A DNA stretch of 15,582 bases from a virus (lineage: Duplodnaviria > Heunggongvirae > Uroviricota > Caudoviricetes), in the IMG/VR virus record IMGVR_UViG_3300029888_000066; one strand, 5' to 3'. The position numbers and the translations under genes were made by a program. Below, one piece after another: positions 2,222 to 10,147 of this stretch. Under the pieces are notes generated by a model, which was not told the DNA's origin, made no database searches, and was given only the letters and a program-made list of their open reading frames with translations. Within the stretch, counting starts at the first letter, position 1, and each line of letters starts with the position of its first letter.

Positions 2222-2629
2222 TTATCTTTTATTTGTCCGCTGACGGGCTTTTAGTAATTCTTCAAAGAGTTTATTGAAGTTTTTTACTCGAGCTCGCATT
2301 TCGGCGAGCTGGGTATTCTGTTCTGATTCTGGCAGTGCATTAAACAGCTCAAGGAGCTCTAGTTCTTTGGGGGATAAGGCAACTGGCTTCTCAACAGGTG
2401 GTGTTGGTTGCTTGTCTTCATCGCCAAATAGAATCCATGTTGGTGAGCATTGCAATACTTTGCTGAGGGCAAAAAGGTTCTTCCCTGTAGGTTCACTATC
2501 ACCCCGTTCCCATTGTGATACAGACACATGGGAGATTTTCAGGGCTTTAGCAAGAGACCTTTGGGTGTGTTTGAGGTTTTTCCGACGATACCTGATGCGT
2601 TCGCCGATAGTTAAATTTTTTGTTTCCAT
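2222..2629 (-). CDS. dicA: Repressor DicA (XRE-family HTH, cI-like), 135 aa
   Basis: ORF translation METKNLTIGERIRYRRKNLKHTQRSLAKALKISHVSVSQWERGD..., recognised as DicA; divergent from dicC. Confidence 0.9.
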   Translation of the reverse strand: METKNLTIGERIRYRRKNLKHTQRSLAKALKISHVSVSQWERGDSEPTGKNLFALSKVLQCSPTWILFGDEDKQPTPPVEKPVALSPKELELLELFNALPESEQNTQLAEMRARVKNFNKLFEELLKARQRTNKR

Positions 2630-2712
2630 AGTTAGCTAATGCTAAATCGTATTGACTATGTTTTTGTTAACATCTATCTTGTTAGTTATGACTAACAATA
2701 AAGGTGTTTTAA
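2630..2712. promoter_or_regulatory. dicA/dicC divergent control region with two palindromic operator candidates and a rightward promoter
   Basis: TTAGCTAATGCTAA at 2632-2645 and GTTAGTTATGACTAAC at 2681-2696; TTGACT at 2652-2657, 17-nt spacer, TATCTT at 2675-2680 reading toward dicC. Confidence 0.5.
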
Positions 2713-2943
2713 ATGCTTAAAACTGACGCTCTTTTGTATTTCGGTTCAAAAACAAAACTTGCACAAGCAGCAGGTATTCGTTTGGCTTCGCTTTATAGCT
2801 GGAAAGGGGATTTAGTTCCCGAAGGTCGCGCGATGCGTCTACAGGAGGCATCTGGCGGGGAGCTTCAGTATGATCCCAAAGTTTATGATGAATATCGTAA
2901 GACGAAGCGGGCGGGGCGGTTGAACAATGAAAATCACTCCTGA
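2713..2943 (+). CDS. dicC: Cro-like regulator DicC, 76 aa
   Basis: ORF translation MLKTDALLYFGSKTKLAQAAGIRLASLYSWKGDLVPEGRAMRLQEASGGELQYDPKVYDEYRKTKRAGRLNNENHS, recognised as DicC. Confidence 0.85.
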   Translation: MLKTDALLYFGSKTKLAQAAGIRLASLYSWKGDLVPEGRAMRLQEASGGELQYDPKVYDEYRKTKRAGRLNNENHS

Positions 2944-3448
2944 ACAGGCTCGTGAGGCTCTGGATGCCTGGATATGTCGACCAGGAATGACACAGGAGCA
3001 GGCGACGATATTAATCACTGAAGCATTCTGGGCTTTGAAAGAGCGCCCGAACATCGATGTTCAGCGTGTCACATATGAAGGTGGCGCGATTGATCAGCGA
3101 GCGCTTGGCGTTAATCGAGTGAAGATATTTGAACGCTGGAAGGCTATCGACACCAGGGATAAGCGTGAAAAGTTCACGGCGCTAGTGCCTGCAATTATGG
3201 AGGCTATCCGGATTAATGATTTCAGGTTGTATCGTAAAATTACTGACGGAAAAAGCATCACGTGCATGATCGCCGGGTTAAACAAAGAATATGGCGATGT
3301 GGTGGAGTCCGGACTGCTTTTTGCTGATCCTGCCGTAGTGGATCGTGAAACTGACGAACTTATAGAAAAAGCAATTGCTTTCAAACTTGCGTATCGACAG
3401 CAATACCAACAAAAAGCTGGATGGAATTATGAGCCTTCTTTTTGCTGA
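2927..3448 (+). CDS. Hypothetical 173-aa protein in the position after cro (possible CII-like or YdaT-like regulator)
   Basis: ATG inside the last codons of dicC (coupled arrangement); product begins MKITPEQAREALDAWICRPG; functional call is by position only. Confidence 0.55.
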   Translation: MKITPEQAREALDAWICRPGMTQEQATILITEAFWALKERPNIDVQRVTYEGGAIDQRALGVNRVKIFERWKAIDTRDKREKFTALVPAIMEAIRINDFRLYRKITDGKSITCMIAGLNKEYGDVVESGLLFADPAVVDRETDELIEKAIAFKLAYRQQYQQKAGWNYEPSFC

Positions 3449-4394
3449 ACGCCCACTGGTTATAAACACGCAGCTGGCAATGAAAATTGGCTTAAACGAA
3501 GCCATTGTTTTGCAACAACTGCACTACTGGTTGAGAGATACCAACTCCGGCATGGAATGTGATGGTGTTCGCTGGATTTATAACACAACGGAACAATGGC
3601 TGGAACAGTTCCCATTCTGGTCAGAGTCAACGTTAAAGCGCGCGTTTGCAAGTCTGAAAACGCTGGGGCTTTTGCGTTGTGAAAAGCTCAATAAATCAAA
3701 GCGCGATATGACCAATTTCTACACGATCAACTATGGGAGCGAGCTTTTAGATGGTGGCAAATTGAGCGAATCCATCGGTTCAAAATGCGCCGCTCCATCA
3801 GGTCAAAATGACACGATGGAAGAGGTCAAAATGAAACGCTCCATTGGTTCAAAACGACCCAATGTCATCGGGTCAAAATGGCCTGATGATCTTACAGAGA
3901 ATACAACAGAGATTACTACAGAGAATAAAAACACTTTTCGTCCGGAAGCTTCGCAACCGGACCCGCAGACGACTGAACAGGATTTTTTAACCCGGAACTC
4001 CGACGCGGTTGTGTTTAGTGCGAAAAAACGCCAGTGGGGTAGCAGGGAGGATTTGGCGTGTGCGCAGTGGATCTGGGGGCGGATCGTGGGTCTCTACGAA
4101 CAGGCAGCCAGTGATGATGGCGAGATCATGCGACCAAAAGAGCCTAACTGGACTGCCTGGGCCAATGACGTGCGCACAATGCGGATGCTGGATGGCAGAA
4201 GCCACAGACAAATTTGCGAAATGTTTGGTCGGGTTCAGCGAGATCCATTCTGGGTAAAAAACATCATGAGCCCGTCAAAGCTCCGCGAAAAATGGGACGA
4301 ACTGGTCATCCGCCTGGGACGTTCACCTGTACAGCGTTGTGTTAATCATATTTCTGAACCGGATACAGAAATTCCGCCTGGTTTCAGAGGATAA
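3429..4394 (+). CDS. Replication initiator, lambda O-like (N-terminal winged-helix-like region, iterons inside the gene)
   Basis: Frame of ORF 3375..4394; preferred start ATG 3429 (MSLLFAERPLVINTQLAMKIGLNEAIV), with TTG 3375 as an alternative; five direct repeats inside the coding sequence as in lambda O/ori. Confidence 0.6.
   Translation: MSLLFAERPLVINTQLAMKIGLNEAIVLQQLHYWLRDTNSGMECDGVRWIYNTTEQWLEQFPFWSESTLKRAFASLKTLGLLRCEKLNKSKRDMTNFYTINYGSELLDGGKLSESIGSKCAAPSGQNDTMEEVKMKRSIGSKRPNVIGSKWPDDLTENTTEITTENKNTFRPEASQPDPQTTEQDFLTRNSDAVVFSAKKRQWGSREDLACAQWIWGRIVGLYEQAASDDGEIMRPKEPNWTAWANDVRTMRMLDGRSHRQICEMFGRVQRDPFWVKNIMSPSKLREKWDELVIRLGRSPVQRCVNHISEPDTEIPPGFRG
3771..3880 (+). repeat. Five iterons (consensus about TCCATCGGTTCAAAATG) at 23-24 bp spacing: candidate phage replication origin
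   Basis: Copies start at 3771, 3794, 3817, 3840 and 3864; they encode the repeated SIGSK/IGSK peptide; followed at 3893-3928 by three TACAGAGAATA-like repeats in an AT-richer stretch. Confidence 0.7.
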
Positions 4395-4434
4395 ATGTTG
4401 ATTTCAGGTCATGAGGTAATTTTAAGGGGGACTT

Positions 4435-4854
4435 GTGGCAAAAGTTTTTACACAAGAAGAGCGGGAAAAAATTAAATGGCAGGTGGTGGAACTCGTGCGC
4501 CAGAGCGGCCGTGAGACGTTACGGCAACTGGAAGCTAAAACAGGTGCGACTAGATATCTGATGAGCGTTCTTGCCAGAGAGCTGGTAGCCAGTGGCGATG
4601 TATACAACTCCGGCTACGGGTTATTCCCCTCTGAACAGGCGCGTAAGGACTGGCAAAACGCCCGCAAAAAACTCTCGAGGGCAAAGGTGAAGAAACCTGC
4701 TGTGGTTGATCCGGACCTTATCTGGTCATCACCTGACGGAGAAATACGTCGCTACGACAGTCGTCTAAACATAATCTGTCGCGAGTGCCGGAAGGCAAGG
4801 AGAAGCAGGCTATTGTTAACACCAAGCTGTAATGTCCCCTTTGAACCATTCTAA
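4435..4854 (+). CDS. Hypothetical 139-aa protein after the O-like gene; 3' end may be altered by the adjacent IS
   Basis: GTG start with AAGGGGG Shine-Dalgarno 6 nt upstream; MAKVFTQEEREKIKWQVVELVRQSGRETLRQLEAKTGATRYL; stop lies only 33 bp before the transposase gene. Confidence 0.5.
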   Translation: MAKVFTQEEREKIKWQVVELVRQSGRETLRQLEAKTGATRYLMSVLARELVASGDVYNSGYGLFPSEQARKDWQNARKKLSRAKVKKPAVVDPDLIWSSPDGEIRRYDSRLNIICRECRKARRSRLLLTPSCNVPFEPF

Positions 4855-6470
4855 AATGTCCCCAGACAATTCTCTGGGGGATTTTTCATGATCAAAGAGA
4901 CTGTTACGATGAGTCATAAGGAACTCCACCGACTTCAGATTATTCAGGAGTCAATTAATCGACATATTACTCAGGAACAAGCTGCGGCACGCATTGGCAT
5001 TTCTATTCGGCAGGTTAAACGTCTGGTGCAACGGTATAGAAATGAAGGGCCTTCTGGTCTGGTTTCCCACCGACGTGGAAAGCGTCCTAATAATTCCTTT
5101 TCTACTGAATTCAGAGCAACAGTAATTTCACTCCTCAAAGGCCGTTACGCTGATTTTGGACCTACGTTTGCGTGCGAAAAATTGCGCGAGATACACGGTT
5201 TATCTTTATCCGTTGAAACTCTCAGAAAGTGGATGATAGAAGAGGGGTTATGGCGTGAACGCCGTCGTAAAATTGCCCGTATATATCAACGCCGCATGCG
5301 ACGACCATCTTACGGTGAACTGATCCAGATTGATGGCTCACCTCATGACTGGTTTGAAAATCGAGGCCCCAGATGTACACTGATCGTTTTCATTGATGAT
5401 GCCACCAGTGCGTTGATGGCGTTGCGTTTTGTGCCTGCTGAAACAACCCGGGCTTACATGGAAACCCTCCGGGGTTACCTTAATGATCATGGCGTACCGC
5501 TCGCTCTCTACTCTGATAGACACAGTATATTCAGGGTAAATAACCCAGAGCGGGAAGGTGAGCTGACCCAGTTCACTCGTGCGATAAAGACACTGGGCAT
5601 CGAGCCAATCCATGCCAACAGCCCGCAGGCAAAAGGGCGGGTAGAGCGCGCCAATCAGACACTACAGGACAGGCTGGTCAAAGAAATGCGGCTTCAGAAT
5701 ATCAGTGATATTGAAACAGCAAATGCATGGTTGCCGACCTTTATTGAAGCCTATAACAAGCGGTTCGCTACGTCGCCTCGTACTACTGATAATGCTCATC
5801 TTGATGTGCACCATTCTGAAGAGGAACTGGGTTATATCTTCAGCCTACAGGCGAAGCGCGTTCTGTCTAAAAATCTCACTTTCCAGTACAAAAGCAGTGC
5901 GTTTCAGGTACGCAGTGAGGGCCGGGGATATCGACTTAGGCATTCGGTTGTTACTGTATGTGAGAACTTTGACGGTGAAATTAACGTTCTGTATGACGGG
6001 AAAGCGCTGGGCTGGGAAAAGTATGTTGATGGCCCGGAGCCTATACCACTGGATGATGAAAAGAGTGTCCATGAACGAGTGGATAATGCCCGTATTGATT
6101 TACGCTCAAAATACTATGTTAAATCTAAAGCTGACCATCCCTGGCTTACGCGCCGAACGCAAAGTCATCAGCAAGTTAAGCCCCCGAAGTTACCTAAAAA
6201 GAAGCCTGATCCCGATAAAATAGATTGAAACCAAGATCGATTCGGTTGAGTGCATATCCATTCATAGGGTAGATTCTTAAGTCGCGTTTCTGGTGTTCAT
6301 TTTCGGGTGGTTTGTTACTTGTTTTACCGGGGATATGCCAGAAACGCGCTGAGTCAGTCTGGGCGGTGCGCGTAATGAGGCGTTATGGTAAATAGCCTAT
6401 GCTAATGTCCGCTAAGAGCAAGAAGCGGAAGTTGGCAGTTTTGTGGACTGTCCCCACAAAAGTGACTACA
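4830..6470 (+). mobile_element. Insertion sequence carrying the DDE transposase; boundaries not resolved
   Basis: Transposase gene plus about 250 bp of non-coding 3' sequence; no clean terminal inverted repeats found by eye, so the ends are approximate. Confidence 0.35.
4888..6228 (+). CDS. DDE (rve-type) transposase, 446 aa, IS481/ISNCY-like with N-terminal HTH
   Basis: MIKETVTMSHKELHRLQIIQESINRHITQEQAAARIGISIRQVKRL (HTH), then an integrase-core pattern with candidate catalytic D (IQIDGSPHDW), D (YSDRHSIF) and E (ERANQTLQDRL); GGGGGA Shine-Dalgarno upstream. Confidence 0.85.
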   Translation: MIKETVTMSHKELHRLQIIQESINRHITQEQAAARIGISIRQVKRLVQRYRNEGPSGLVSHRRGKRPNNSFSTEFRATVISLLKGRYADFGPTFACEKLREIHGLSLSVETLRKWMIEEGLWRERRRKIARIYQRRMRRPSYGELIQIDGSPHDWFENRGPRCTLIVFIDDATSALMALRFVPAETTRAYMETLRGYLNDHGVPLALYSDRHSIFRVNNPEREGELTQFTRAIKTLGIEPIHANSPQAKGRVERANQTLQDRLVKEMRLQNISDIETANAWLPTFIEAYNKRFATSPRTTDNAHLDVHHSEEELGYIFSLQAKRVLSKNLTFQYKSSAFQVRSEGRGYRLRHSVVTVCENFDGEINVLYDGKALGWEKYVDGPEPIPLDDEKSVHERVDNARIDLRSKYYVKSKADHPWLTRRTQSHQQVKPPKLPKKKPDPDKID

Positions 6471-7199: not shown

Positions 7200-7505
7200 T
7201 TATCGACAGGTCAGGTCACCGCTCACCCGCCGACGAGAAAGCAACACTGACATGCTAAAGCAAAAAATAGATGAATAAGTTGAGTTGTGCATATGTAGCC
7301 TGACCGTCACAAAGTATATGGTGTCTGTACCAGTAAGATGATGGCCGGACTCTTTAAAAGCGAGCTGACCTGCACAATACAGGATGGACTTAGCAATGGC
7401 TGCTCCTGGCACAAAGCGGACAGTGATCACCGTTCTTACGACTACTTTCTGACTTCCTTCGTGACTTGCCCTAAGCATGTTGTAGTGCGATACTTGTAAT
7501 GACAT
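7200..7505 (-). CDS. YdfV-like ORF, 101 aa (position between flxA and relB)
   Basis: ORF of the expected length and position; no convincing ribosome-binding site seen; overlaps the relBE promoter region, so may not be translated. Confidence 0.35.
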   Translation of the reverse strand: MSLQVSHYNMLRASHEGSQKVVVRTVITVRFVPGAAIAKSILYCAGQLAFKESGHHLTGTDTIYFVTVRLHMHNSTYSSIFCFSMSVLLSRRRVSGDLTCR

Positions 7506-7518
7506 TTGTAATTACAAG
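7466..7518 (+). promoter_or_regulatory. relBE promoter with relO-type operator
   Basis: TTGCCC, 17-nt spacer, GATACT, overlapping the palindromic CTTGTAATGACATTTGTAATTACAAG immediately upstream of relB. Confidence 0.6.
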
Positions 7519-7529
7519 AGGTGTAAGAC

Positions 7530-7769
7530 ATGGGTAGCATTAACCTGCGTATTGACGATGAACTTAAAGCGCGTTCTTACGCCGCGCTTGAAAAAATGGG
7601 TGTAACTCCTTCTGAAGCGCTTCGTCTCATGCTCGAGTATATCGCTGACAATGAACGCTTGCCGTTCAAACAGACACTCCTGAGTGATGAAGATGCTGAA
7701 CTTGTGGAGATAGTGAAAGAACGGCTTCGTAATCCTAAGCCAGTACGTGTGACGCTGGATGAACTCTGA
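7530..7769 (+). CDS. relB: Antitoxin RelB, 79 aa
   Basis: Translation MGSINLRIDDELKARSYAALEKMGVTPSEALRLMLEYIADNERLPFKQTLLSDEDAELVEIVKERLRNPKPVRVTLDEL, recognised as RelB. Confidence 0.9.
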   Translation: MGSINLRIDDELKARSYAALEKMGVTPSEALRLMLEYIADNERLPFKQTLLSDEDAELVEIVKERLRNPKPVRVTLDEL

Positions 7770-8056
7770 TGGCGTATTTTCTGGATTTTGACGAGCGGGC
7801 ACTAAAGGAATGGCGAAAGCTGGGCTCGACGGTACGTGAACAGTTGAAAAAGAAGCTGGTTGAAGTACTTGAGTCACCCCGGATTGAAGCAAACAAGCTC
7901 CGTGGTATGCCTGATTGTTACAAGATTAAGCTCCGGTCTTCAGGCTATCGCCTTGTATACCAGGTTATAGACGAGAAAGTTGTCGTTTTCGTGATTTCTG
8001 TTGGGAAAAGAGAACGCTCGGAAGTATATAGCGAGGCGGTCAAACGCATTCTCTGA
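7769..8056 (+). CDS. relE: mRNA interferase toxin RelE, 95 aa
   Basis: Start overlaps the relB stop (ATGA-type coupling); translation MAYFLDFDERALKEWRKLGSTVREQLKKKLVEVLESPRIEANKLRGMPDCYKIKLR..., recognised as RelE. Confidence 0.9.
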   Translation: MAYFLDFDERALKEWRKLGSTVREQLKKKLVEVLESPRIEANKLRGMPDCYKIKLRSSGYRLVYQVIDEKVVVFVISVGKRERSEVYSEAVKRIL

Positions 8057-8127
8057 ACCAAAGCATGACATCTCTGTTTCGCACCGAAGGTGACACTTCT
8101 GCTTTGCGTTGACAGGAGAAGCAGGCT

Positions 8128-8283
8128 ATGAAGCAGCAAAAGGCGATGTTAATCGCCCTGATCGTCATCTGTTTAACCGTCATAGTGACGGCACTGGTAA
8201 CGAGGAAAGACCTCTGCGAGGTACGAATCCGAACCGGCCAGACGGAGGTCGCTGTCTTCACAGCTTACGAACCTGAGGAGTAA
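8128..8283 (+). CDS. hokD: Hok-family membrane toxin HokD (RelF), 51 aa
   Basis: Below the 60-aa cutoff of the ORF track; ATG 8128 with GGAGAAGCAGG upstream; translation MKQQKAMLIALIVICLTVIVTALVTRKDLCEVRIRTGQTEVAVFTAYEPEE. Confidence 0.85.
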   Translation: MKQQKAMLIALIVICLTVIVTALVTRKDLCEVRIRTGQTEVAVFTAYEPEE

Positions 8284-8351
8284 GAGACCCGGCGGGGGAG
8301 AAATCCCTCGCCACCTCTGATGTGGCAGGCATCCTCAACGCACCCGCACTT

Positions 8352-8379
8352 AACCCGCTTCGGCGGGTTTTTGTTTTTA
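8352..8379 (+). terminator. Intrinsic terminator after hokD
   Basis: ACCCGC-TTCG-GCGGGT hairpin followed by TTTTTGTTTTTATTTT. Confidence 0.7.
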
Positions 8380-8499
8380 TTTTCAACGCGTTTGAAGTTC
8401 TGGACGGTGCCGGAATAGAATCAAAAATACTTAAGTAGCGCGCAGGGATAAGAGGGATGGTCCCTTAAAGGGGAGAGCTAATTATCCGGAAGGATTCTG

Positions 8500-8751
8500 A
8501 TGATGAACATCGAAGAACTGCGTAAAATTTTTTGTGAAGATGGCCTCTATGCTGTGTGCGTTGAAAATGGAAATCTTGTTAGTCATTACCGCATTATGTG
8601 TTTGCGAAAGAATGGGGCTGCGTTAATTAATTTTGTGGATGCTCGGGTCACGGACGGATTTATCTTGCGCGAAGGTGAGTTTGTCACTTCATTACAGGCA
8701 TTGAAAGAGATCGGAATAAAAGCTGGCTTTTCTGCTTTTTCAGGAGAATAA
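8500..8751 (+). CDS. rem: Rem, small prophage protein, 83 aa
   Basis: Matches the 83-aa length and position of Rem in Qin-type prophages; MMNIEELRKIFCEDGLYAVCVENGNLVSHYRIMCLRKNG; GGAAGGA Shine-Dalgarno upstream; possible promoter TTGAAG at about 8391. Confidence 0.7.
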   Translation: MMNIEELRKIFCEDGLYAVCVENGNLVSHYRIMCLRKNGAALINFVDARVTDGFILREGEFVTSLQALKEIGIKAGFSAFSGE

Positions 8752-8817
8752 ACTCATCTACAATCTTGCGCGGGGCTGAACTCCCGCTGAGTAACACCGT
8801 GCCACCGGAGAAAACCG

Positions 8818-9096
8818 ATGGCACGCAACGCAAAATATTACAATTCTGATAATTCGCCCGTTCTTGCCTGCACGCACGGGCGGTATTCTCACGCATTCAA
8901 GTCTGAATGGTTCCAGCACCCTCCATGCACTGCAGAACAGGCCGAATGGCTGATTCATTCTTACCGCAGGCGCGGGTTCGAGGTTAAGAAAGCTCTCAGT
9001 CTCGACTATCGGCACTGGATAATCTCTGTCAGGCTGCCTTATTCCGAACGCCCACCACGTGCGTCCCGCACTTTCCAGCAACGGATCTGGAGGTAA
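8818..9096 (+). CDS. Hypothetical Cys/His-rich 92-aa protein, translationally coupled to ydfU
   Basis: GGAG 7 nt upstream of ATG; stop TAA sits inside the GGAGGTAAcGTG junction that starts ydfU; MARNAKYYNSDNSPVLACTHGRYSHAFKSEWFQHPPCTAEQAEWLIH. Confidence 0.5.
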   Translation: MARNAKYYNSDNSPVLACTHGRYSHAFKSEWFQHPPCTAEQAEWLIHSYRRRGFEVKKALSLDYRHWIISVRLPYSERPPRASRTFQQRIWR

Positions 9097-9097
9097 C

Positions 9098-10147
9098 GTG
9101 CGGGTATTACTTAGACCTGTTCTGGTGCCTGAGCTTGGGCTGGTGGTCCTTAAGCCGGGCCGTGAATCCATACAGATATTTCATAATCCTCGAGTGCTGG
9201 TGGAACCGGAACCAAAAAGCATGCGTAATCTGCCATCCGGAGTCGTTCCTGCCGTTCGCCAGCCGCTGGCGGAAGACAAAACATTGCTGCCGTTTTTTAG
9301 TAACGAACGGGTGATTCGTGCTGCTGGCGGCGTTGGCGCATTGTCCGACTGGCTATTACGTCATGTTACATCCTGCCAGTGGCCTAATGGCGATTACCAT
9401 CACACTGAAACAGTCATTCACCGTTATGGTACCGGCGCAATGGTGTTGTGCTGGCACTGCGACAACCAACTGCGTGACCAGACATCGGAATCACTGGAGC
9501 TGCTTGCTCAACAAAATCTGACAGCATGGGTGATTGACGTCATCCGTCACGCAATAAGCGGTACGCAGGAGCGGGAATTATCTTTGGCTGAATTATCCTG
9601 GTGGGCGGTCTGCAATCAGGTGGTGGATGCACTACCTGAGGCTGTATCGCGTCGTTCGCTGGGATTACCAGCGGAAAAAATCTGCTCGGTGTACCGCGAA
9701 AGCGACATCGTACCGGGAGAGCAGACCGCCACCAGCATATTGAAACAACGCACAAAAAATCTTGCACCGTTGCCTTACGCCCACCAGCAACAAAAATCAC
9801 CACAGGAAAAGACGGTGGTAAGCATCACCGTTGATCCAGAGTCTCCGGAATCTTTCATGAAGCTGCCTAAACGTCGCCGCTGGGTTAAGGAGAAATACAC
9901 ACGTTGGGTTAAGACACAGCCGTGTGCTTGCTGCGGTATGCCAGCCGACGATCCGCATCATCTGATTGGTCACGGGCAGGGCGGAATGGGAACAAAAGCA
10001 CATGATCTCTTTGTGTTGCCTTTGTGCAGAAAGCATCACAACGAGCTGCATACGGATACAGTGGCATTTGAAGATAAGTATGGCTCCCAACTGGAGCTGA
10101 TATTTCGTTTTATCGATCGCGCGCTGGCAATTGGCGTACTGGCGTAA
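9098..10147 (+). CDS. ydfU: YdfU-like prophage protein, 349 aa, C-terminal Cys/His (HNH-like) motif
   Basis: GTG start 4-5 nt after GGAGG; 349 aa, as I recall for YdfU; C-terminus KTQPCACCGMPADDPHHLIGHGQGG...LCRKHHNELH; the longer ORF from 9059 is an upstream extension. Confidence 0.7.
   Translation: MRVLLRPVLVPELGLVVLKPGRESIQIFHNPRVLVEPEPKSMRNLPSGVVPAVRQPLAEDKTLLPFFSNERVIRAAGGVGALSDWLLRHVTSCQWPNGDYHHTETVIHRYGTGAMVLCWHCDNQLRDQTSESLELLAQQNLTAWVIDVIRHAISGTQERELSLAELSWWAVCNQVVDALPEAVSRRSLGLPAEKICSVYRESDIVPGEQTATSILKQRTKNLAPLPYAHQQQKSPQEKTVVSITVDPESPESFMKLPKRRRWVKEKYTRWVKTQPCACCGMPADDPHHLIGHGQGGMGTKAHDLFVLPLCRKHHNELHTDTVAFEDKYGSQLELIFRFIDRALAIGVLA

Follow-up and report, generated by a model that had tools for sequence, protein, structure and literature searches.

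The question raised by this locus is whether a set of short direct repeats, lying within a phage gene mostly annotated as hypothetical, marks the place where the phage starts to replicate its DNA, or whether these repeats have another meaning. The window considered here is the whole stretch of 15,582 nucleotides (nt) of the IMG/VR record IMGVR_UViG_3300029888_000066, from a virus of the Caudoviricetes, and the gene is that of a putative replication initiator at 3429–4394. A first-pass annotation of the window had noticed five copies of a 17-base pair (bp) motif followed by three shorter repeats, and had proposed a lambda-like origin inside an O-like gene. It is very likely that positions 3750–3930 are indeed the vegetative replication origin of a Qin/lambda-like E. 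coli prophage, placed inside the gene of its own initiator, and, as judged from the sequence, this origin is intact and very probably functional. The evidence comes from the reading frames of the repeats, the constraint acting on them at the DNA level, their position over an inter-domain linker, a local minimum of helix stability, and a layout conserved in relatives with co-varying repeat arms.

The five 17-mers do start at 3771, 3794, 3817, 3840 and 3864, each coordinate being recovered by a repeat search, with spacings of 23, 23, 23 and 24 bp. The natural unit is 23 bp long and the units abut, so that six of them (U0 to U5, Table 1) span 3750–3888, five being good copies and one a degenerate copy upstream. 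The counterpart of this degenerate U0 is a good copy (GAGGTCAAAGTGA) in the relatives mEp460_4F5 and Klebsiella phage phi7.2. The iteron unit is a partial palindrome, CATCnGGTCAAAATGnCCnGATG, around CAAAATG; U2, U4 and U5 are each self-complementary at 16 of their 23 positions, and the centre of U4, CAAAACG, is the same as in the lambda iterons. With at most one mismatch, the core GGTCAAAATG is found six times in the 15.6-kilobase (kb) window, against 1.56 occurrences expected for the whole of it. Four of the six are phased within 3778–3880, three of them exact, and the core elsewhere amounts to two isolated one-mismatch matches, no second iteron cluster being seen in the window.

Immediately to the right of the array, 12-bp repeats of the type TACAGAGAnTAC (TACAGAGAATA-like or TACAGAGAATAC-like copies) start at 3893, 3905 and 3917, at 12-bp spacing. 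The three repeats and the AT-richer stretch of the earlier annotation are both real, the GC content falling to 0.35 in 3880–3939. The pattern ACAGAGAWTA occurs four times in the window, three of these within 3894–3927, where 0.07 would be expected for the entire window. The 36-bp stretch of lowest helix stability in the gene begins at 3896, within the 12-mers, and ranks in the window's top 1.7%. The 12-mers are 100% identical in a relative with 78% identity over the N-domain DNA. Their position and low stability make them the leading candidate for where opening would begin. An isolated match to ACAGAGATTA lies far from the origin, at 9020–9029 on the minus strand, and is probably due to chance. 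Of note, a GATC (Dam) site at 3888–3891 joins the last iteron to the first 12-mer and is conserved in relatives, and the junction GATCTTACAGAG or GATCATACAGAG recurs in several enterobacterial ones.

The units U0 to U5 start in frames 0, 2, 1, 0, 2 and 2 of the gene, and the corresponding peptides are DGGKLSE, IGSKCAA, SGQNDTM, EEVKMKR, IGSKRPN and IGSKWPD. Since all three frames are used and a period of 23 bp is not divisible by three, the units are DNA elements and not a peptide duplication. The units in frame 2 (U1, U4 and U5) carry TGC, CGA and TGG, and U2 and U3 keep the consensus TGA. As TGA would be a stop codon in frame 2, much of the iteron “variation” looks like a compromise between two codes. 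Third-codon-position identities to mEp460_4F5 and to Klebsiella phage ST147-VIM1phi7.2 are, respectively, 0.53 and 0.47 in the N-domain, 0.83 and 0.80 in the iterons, and 1.00 and 1.00 in the 12-mers, which means that the codon-periodic pattern of protein-level selection vanishes in the repeat segment. The 12-mers are in frame, encoding TENT/TEIT/TENK. The origin DNA also codes for a disordered linker, so that three frames can be tolerated, with the iterons of one frame avoiding the consensus TGA.

The same layout is found well beyond the closest relatives. A tblastn search with residues 1–109 returned 155 phage records, and nine phages from seven host genera, with 76% to 43% identity, were fetched. 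Arrays centred on CAAAWTG lie directly after the N-domain coding part in eight of the nine, mostly with units 22–24 bp apart; a single unit was found in the ninth, Pseudomonas phage AF. Repeats of the ACAGAGAnTAC type follow the units in most of these phages, and repeats of the 12-mer type are degenerate in Hafnia phage yong2, Staphylococcus phage 96 and Acinetobacter phage Abp95. The layout is thus shared with Erwinia, Hafnia, Providencia, Staphylococcus, Bacillus and Acinetobacter phages, the iterons themselves being lineage-specific. Their centre is constant across lineages, and their arms differ from lineage to lineage yet stay complementary, as can be seen from the cores GGTCAAAATGACC in this window, GGGCAAATTGCCC in Erwinia phage Stean, GGACAAATTGTCC in Hafnia phage yong2, and TACCCAAAATGGGTA, GTTCAAAATGAAC and GTATCAAAATGATAC in the IMG/VR loci L101, L116 and L136. 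Over 80 sites from 27 loci, arm complementarity at positions 1 to 4 from the centre is 62, 57, 69 and 64%, against 36, 32, 48 and 33% when arms are paired across loci as a control. This excess within loci is what is expected if a symmetric dimer binds the sites and its specificity evolves along with them. The N-domain alignment search of IMG/VR gave only loci of at least 95% identity; the covariation analysis drew on the phage collection and on motif scans. The repeats are thus not absent from related phages, since they are present in deposited relatives and the gene itself is base-for-base that of Escherichia phage PhiR42_1. Comparison with the ori regions of other phages agrees with the proposed origin: layout, genomic position and the placing of the low-stability tract match those of lambda, and arrays are found in distant relatives. 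A packaging site or a partition site was considered and dropped, the array lying in the initiator gene in every relative, with the anatomy of an origin. No Rfam match was obtained in 3000–5000 at E values up to 1, and the consensus scan gave no promoter or terminator inside the origin.

Table 1. Features of the window in and around the proposed origin (positions are those of the 15,582-nt window)
Feature	Position	Strand	Sequence	Remarks
Immunity region	2222–3448			Pfam and PHROG matches; PhiR42_1 annotation
cI/DicA-like repressor	2222–2629	−
pR-like promoter, upstream of cro	2652–2680	+		Consensus scan; would transcribe cro, the cII-like gene, the initiator gene and the origin
Cro/DicC-like gene	2713–2943	+
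CII/YdaT-like gene	2927–3448	+
Replication initiator gene	3429–4394	+		Open reading frame (ORF), 321 residues; phrog_391 “replication initiation O-like”, E 1.1e-91
N-terminal domain, predicted winged helix	3429–3749	+		Residues 1–107; presumed iteron-binding module
Iteron U0, degenerate	3750–3772		GGTGGCAAATTGAGC / GATGGTGGCAAATTGAGCGAATC	One 23-bp period upstream of U1
Disordered inter-domain linker	3753–3971	+		Residues 109–181; AF2 predicted local distance difference test (pLDDT) ~25; coincides with iterons and 12-mers
Iteron U1	3773–3795		CATCGGTTCAAAATGCGCCGCTC	Frame 2; TGC in place of consensus TGA
Iteron U2	3796–3818		CATCAGGTCAAAATGACACGATG	Frame 1; best dyad symmetry
Iteron U3	3819–3841		GAAGAGGTCAAAATGAAACGCTC	Frame 0
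Iteron U4	3842–3864		CATTGGTTCAAAACGACCCAATG	Frame 2; CGA in place of TGA
Iteron U5	3866–3888		CATCGGGTCAAAATGGCCTGATG	Frame 2; TGG in place of TGA
Three tandem 12-mers	3893–3928		TACAGAGAATAC / AACAGAGATTAC / TACAGAGAATAA	Presumed DNA unwinding and helicase-entry element
Helical C-terminal domain	4041–4319	+		Residues 205–297; lambda O C-domain homology; pLDDT 70–85
C-terminal tail	4329–4391	+	VQRCVNHISEPDTEIPPGFRG	Near copy of the host DnaT C-terminus
Ren-like/DUF977 (LygF) gene	4435–4854	+		Not a helicase loader; PF06163, E 4.6e-21; phrog_142
ISNCY-family transposase ORF	4888–6228			Intact, 446 residues

The initiator itself is a composite protein. Its AlphaFold model shows two folded domains, residues 10–105 and 205–297, separated by the low-pLDDT segment 109–181. 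Against lambda O, only residues 147–294 align in BLASTP (to O 135–270, 34% identity over 148 residues, E 1e-26). The name “O-like” given in the first-pass annotation therefore holds for the C-terminal half; the N-domain is of a different family, and its fold is probably RepA_N-like. Descent from a diverged lambda O N-domain (Phage_rep_O) was also considered and rejected, with no BLASTP or Pfam support and an hhalign probability of 0.05. No Pfam family was matched by the full product, and Pfam searches of the N-domain in 10 family members, at E values up to 1, gave only weak winged-helix matches, with neither RepA_N PF06970 nor Phage_rep_org_N among them. A Foldseek search of the PDB with the N-domain of the medium-confidence model placed RepA_N first, 5kbj (a Rep–DNA complex) and 4pql being retrieved with probability 1.0. 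A profile search against PDB sequences matched no RepA_N chain or other solved structure at the sequence level, and the N-domain is for this reason called RepA_N-like in fold and mode, and not a family member.

This N-domain family is large, with 10,289 clusters at 50% identity (E 1e-3 or better). Many long relatives (400–880 residues) hold two tandem N-domains, and among the linkers displayed none has a TEITTE-type motif. Counted at a coverage of at least 80%, the gene occurs in 1849 of 5426 complete E. coli genomes, under the name “hypothetical protein” given by the Prokaryotic Genome Annotation Pipeline. The best 120 database homologues are likewise unnamed or “hypothetical”, save one fragment called “Replication protein” in UniRef; none of the 120 has a Pfam domain on this protein, PF06254 and PF17761 sitting on longer fusion calls.

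An origin located within the gene of a replisome organizer is known from SPP1 (G38P/oriL). The closest likeness in organization is with lambda ori. In both cases the iterons lie in the initiator gene, within the segment coding for the inter-domain linker, they are partial palindromes around CAAAAYG (lambda TCCCTCAAAACGAGGGA) spaced by 20–24 bp, and a purine-rich tract of low stability follows immediately on their right, lambda's A-rich tract occupying the same relative position. The C-terminal domains are homologous, and the gene lies at the same genomic place, between cII and ren homologues. However, the DNA-binding N-terminal domain in the window is unrelated by sequence to that of lambda O, there are six units instead of four, a conserved 12-mer triplet replaces the plain A-rich tract, the P gene is missing and a DnaT-like C-terminal tail is added.

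The second likeness is with RepA_N plasmid replicons (pSK41, pTZ2162; also the Vibrio PLE RepA), which provide the best fold matches of the N-domain and the same three-part plan of the initiator. RepA_N initiators of pSK41 and pTZ2162 have about 320 residues, with an iteron-binding winged-helix N-domain, an origin-encoded linker and a host-specific C-domain (PMC5703833). In pSK41 Rep, the central region 121–199 is origin-encoded and dispensable as protein, four Rep boxes being central in rep (PMC5703833). RepA_N origins consist of semi-palindromic repeats converging on a poly-A tract (PMC7145576), and the array in the window similarly consists of semi-palindromic direct repeats running toward poly-A, central in the gene and coding for the linker. 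The differences are that the window N-domain has no sequence match to PF06970 or to solved RepA_N chains, that its C-domain is of the lambda O type and not of the primase-binding staphylococcal type, and that the replicon is a phage and not a plasmid. The “DnaD-like” proteins of Staphylococcus phage 96 and Bacillus phage TP21-L, whose N-domains are 46–52% identical to that of the window, have the same CAAAATG-centred iterons and the 12-mer motif in their genes, but these phages have different C-domains and their own helicase loader and DnaB-type helicase downstream. The kind of origin found here is thus already known, but this variant is a hybrid outside both model families, with a RepA_N-like N-domain, a lambda O C-domain, a DnaT tail, no loader and a sequence-conserved 12-mer.

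In lambda, the C-terminal domain of O binds P. The gene order of the window is that of lambda, with the origin between the cII-like and ren-like genes, except that the gene for a P-like or DnaC-like protein or a helicase is missing: no P, DnaC or helicase gene follows the initiator, and none is annotated anywhere in the complete PhiR42_1 or in relatives. The last 21 residues of the initiator are identical to E. coli DnaT residues 159–179 at 15 of 21 positions, including the terminal IPPGFRG, and relatives with other tails retain an IPxGFRG end, as does the SfIV O-like protein. Neither the DnaT N-domain nor its DNA-binding domain (PF17948) was matched by Pfam in the initiator, only the last ~21 residues being alignable; the initiator carries the DnaT tail alone and is not a DnaT homologue. 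DnaT studies (the 2026 preprimosome work and that on DnaT84-153) indicate that residues 154–179 add to cooperative single-strand binding. The most economical hypothesis is that the initiator may join the host helicase-loading pathway through mimicry of the DnaT tail. L128, another initiator with 12-mers, carries the DnaT DNA-binding domain instead of the tail.

The following sequence of events is proposed. Dimers of the N-terminal winged-helix domain would bind the six 23-bp semi-palindromic iterons (arm-CAAAATG-arm'), as sequence and comparison suggest, and the 23-bp phasing together with the central A-tracts could let the array wrap into a complex resembling the lambda O-some. The resulting strain would open the adjoining (TACAGAGAnTAC)x3 tract, the least stable DNA of the gene. 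By analogy, the lambda O-type C-domain and the DnaT-like tail would then recruit the host helicase system directly, because the phage itself encodes neither P nor DnaC nor a helicase. Transcription running from pR across this region probably helps, in the manner of lambda.

Several points weigh against this origin or against parts of the mechanism. The array is imperfect, U0 and U3 being poor palindromes. The 12-mer tract is only moderately AT-rich (~67% AT), and the exact conservation of the 12-mers suggests a sequence-specific role beyond simple melting. The structural model is of medium confidence (mean pLDDT 55, N-domain 60–79), and the RepA_N match is one of fold without a sequence-level counterpart. 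The phage is devoid of P, and the literature examined defines no partner or specific role for the extreme DnaT tail. Finally, a search of the literature turned up no experimental work on binding, melting or origin function in this initiator family. As regards the 12-mers, iteron plasmids may offer a model for sequence conservation: the Rep proteins of such plasmids (RK2 TrfA, F RepE) bind one strand of the unwinding element, whose short tandem repeats beside the iterons are recognized sequence-specifically (PMC10602881). Their Rep family and repeats are, however, unrelated to those of the window, and their origin lies outside the rep gene.

The 12-mer extends far beyond this phage group. A blind scan of IMG/VR with ACAGAGANTACNACAGAGA gave at least 80 loci, 80 of which were kept. 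Among the matches listed, an N-domain of the window type is encoded within 700 nt upstream at 48 of 80 loci. Most of the others are initiator-like ORFs with different N-domains and iterons, and with C-domains of the lambda O type, of the DnaT DNA-binding type, of the DnaD/DnaB_2 type or of no known type. In the 200 nt upstream, a repeat lag of 21–24 bp is dominant at 44 of 58 non-redundant loci, 31 of them with exactly 23 bp, as compared with 5 of 58 in a control segment. This 21–24 bp spacing, most commonly 23, persists among loci that differ in iteron sequence and in the N-domain of the initiator. The species-representative genomes of GTDB were scanned with a stricter pattern of 21 specified bases, for which about 0.3 matches were estimated to arise by chance. 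The matches listed come from Gamma-, Alpha-, Beta- and Deltaproteobacteria, Firmicutes, Cyanobacteria, Chloroflexi, Bacteroidota, Nitrospirae, Fibrobacteres, Gracilibacteria and one archaeal metagenome-assembled genome. Of the 74 usable loci among them, 64 have the motif within an ORF of 180 codons or longer that is read in the ACA-GAG frame, and 47 have the upstream 21–24 bp lag. The loci with tandem 12-mers are those of the sets L092–L171, L213–L215 and L217–L296. The motif is also found in plasmids; a Nostoc plasmid gene carrying it adjoins a gene for a DnaB-like helicase. In the 8.4-kb Bacillus velezensis plasmid pBamNAU-B3a (L214, 1120–1245), three iterons of the type CCTACAGGGAAA are followed by three ACAGAGATTAC repeats, and there the motif lies outside any long ORF and appears to be non-coding.

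Codon choice was examined in Thr-Glu dipeptides located near, but outside, the ascertained pattern. ACA is used for Thr in 25 of 29 cases near the motif versus 27% in the rest of the same ORFs (p 1e-10), and GAG for Glu in 23 of 29 versus 41% (p 7e-5). A full-text search for the 12-mer strings in a replication context found no paper, only primer coincidences, with the older phage and plasmid literature mostly uncovered by such a search; this silence is weak evidence of novelty. As far as these sequences go, the 23-bp spacing is a conserved hallmark of this class of origin. It is quite possible, if a little short of probable, that the 12-mer (TACAGAGAnTAC)n is an undescribed origin element used across bacteria, which together with 23-bp-phased iterons forms a common origin “cassette” of several unrelated-looking initiator families and is selected as nucleotide sequence and not as peptide.

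A different role can be imagined for the 12-mers alone, namely that they are conserved as a recombination “linker” for the exchange of origin-binding and helicase-recruiting modules, and are not an unwinding element. Modules do appear to be exchanged at this place. In blastn comparisons, Klebsiella phages match window 3486–3963, which covers N-domain, iterons and 12-mers, with 77% identity and do not share the C-domain, and SfII/SfIV-type phages share 3925–4303 (C-domain) with a different N-domain and their own 18-bp iterons. N-domain, iterons and 12-mers thus seem to travel together, apart from the C-domain, with a module boundary just to the right of the 12-mers, and the motif joins many different N- and C-domains. 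Such a role nevertheless appears unlikely. Selection acts only weakly on future recombination, phyla of very different GC content retain the motif, always directly after iterons, the tract is a stability minimum, and SfIV-type genes have the same C-module without 12-mers. In Shigella phage SfIV (L216, 1056–1997), the alternative origin module joined to the same C-domain consists of an HTH_36-like N-domain, 18-bp in-frame iterons CCGTCAAAATCTGA and an A-rich tract.

That the repeats form an origin does not by itself tell whether the origin is alive in this prophage. Over 1.2 kb around the gene, the window is 99.9% identical to PhiR42_1, 98% to HannyBb and 97% to mEp460_ev081. The genome of PhiR42_1 is complete, lambda-like and 48.7 kb long, and carries accessory genes of the Qin type (dicC, relBE, flxA and rem). 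An inactive relic, whether through an insertion sequence element, a deletion or a missing helper, might be suspected from the ISNCY-family transposase gene and from the absence of about 2 kb of PhiR42_1 after the Ren-like gene, but we consider it very unlikely. The initiator gene and origin are the same as in PhiR42_1 across 3429–4394, with zero differences from its “DNA replication protein O” gene, PhiR42_1 has the same transposase region, the absent segment codes for a methyltransferase and small ORFs and not for replication genes, and a helicase loader is absent in every relative. The missing segment corresponds to 7496–9474 of PhiR42_1 (L001), with a junction at 4785–4794 that accounts for the altered 3′ end of the Ren-like/LygF gene, which departs from PhiR42_1 after 4794. 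A terminator-like site was found by scan after this gene, and the transposase region of PhiR42_1 is annotated as two shorter genes. It had been suggested earlier that origin function might be retained if both the initiator and the downstream gene were intact. The first half of this statement stands, the initiator being the same as in PhiR42_1; the downstream gene is Ren-like/DUF977 and not a P analogue, and since these phages have no loader its state is irrelevant to origin function.

The iterons could also be sites at which the initiator regulates its own gene, controls copy number or excludes related phages, with initiation elsewhere in the genome. Plasmid and lambda iterons can titrate the initiator and inhibit replication (PMC3349717), and melting at the present locus is predicted from a stability calculation. 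Only a very small probability is given to this possibility, for the array has the low-stability tract immediately next to it, as in lambda ori, the same arrangement is an experimentally shown origin in lambda and pSK41, and the window has no other visible iteron cluster to which initiation could be assigned. As to a mere coding duplication, giving a repetitive peptide linker devoid of any DNA function, the in-frame reading of the 12-mers and the SIGSK encoded by two iterons would suit it, but it has next to no probability and is already contradicted by the six units in three frames at a period that is not a multiple of three, by the lack of third-position substitution bias in the segment, unlike its flanks, by the ACA and GAG codons of the 12-mers, far above their use elsewhere in the same ORFs, and by the motif being read in another frame in Bacillus phage TP21-L and lying outside any long ORF in the B. 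velezensis plasmid.

The origin proposed at 3750–3930 assigns a role to a gene listed in RefSeq as a “hypothetical protein” and pins a prophage origin to about 180 bp. Its location would be useful for predicting prophage replication and induction, for phage–plasmid incompatibility and for origin-based decoys conferring phage resistance. The iteron arms appear to be the specificity determinants. Lambda-type and RepA_N-type replicons may be seen as two faces of one modular design. Mimicry of the DnaT tail would provide a handle on how the DnaT C-terminus works and on how phages without a loader are supplied with helicase. If the common cassette is real, it would be used by phages, plasmids and prophages of Proteobacteria, Firmicutes, Cyanobacteria, Chloroflexi, candidate phyla and others, and simple AT-richness would not explain the 12-mer. 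A universal partner would be implied, for example the replicative helicase, primase or a single-strand-binding surface conserved among the initiators, and DnaT-tail mimicry would then be one of several interchangeable couplings to host helicase loading. The 12-mer and the 23-bp phasing may together be a simple mark in the sequence by which to recognize origins, across phyla, in phages and plasmids that lack annotation.

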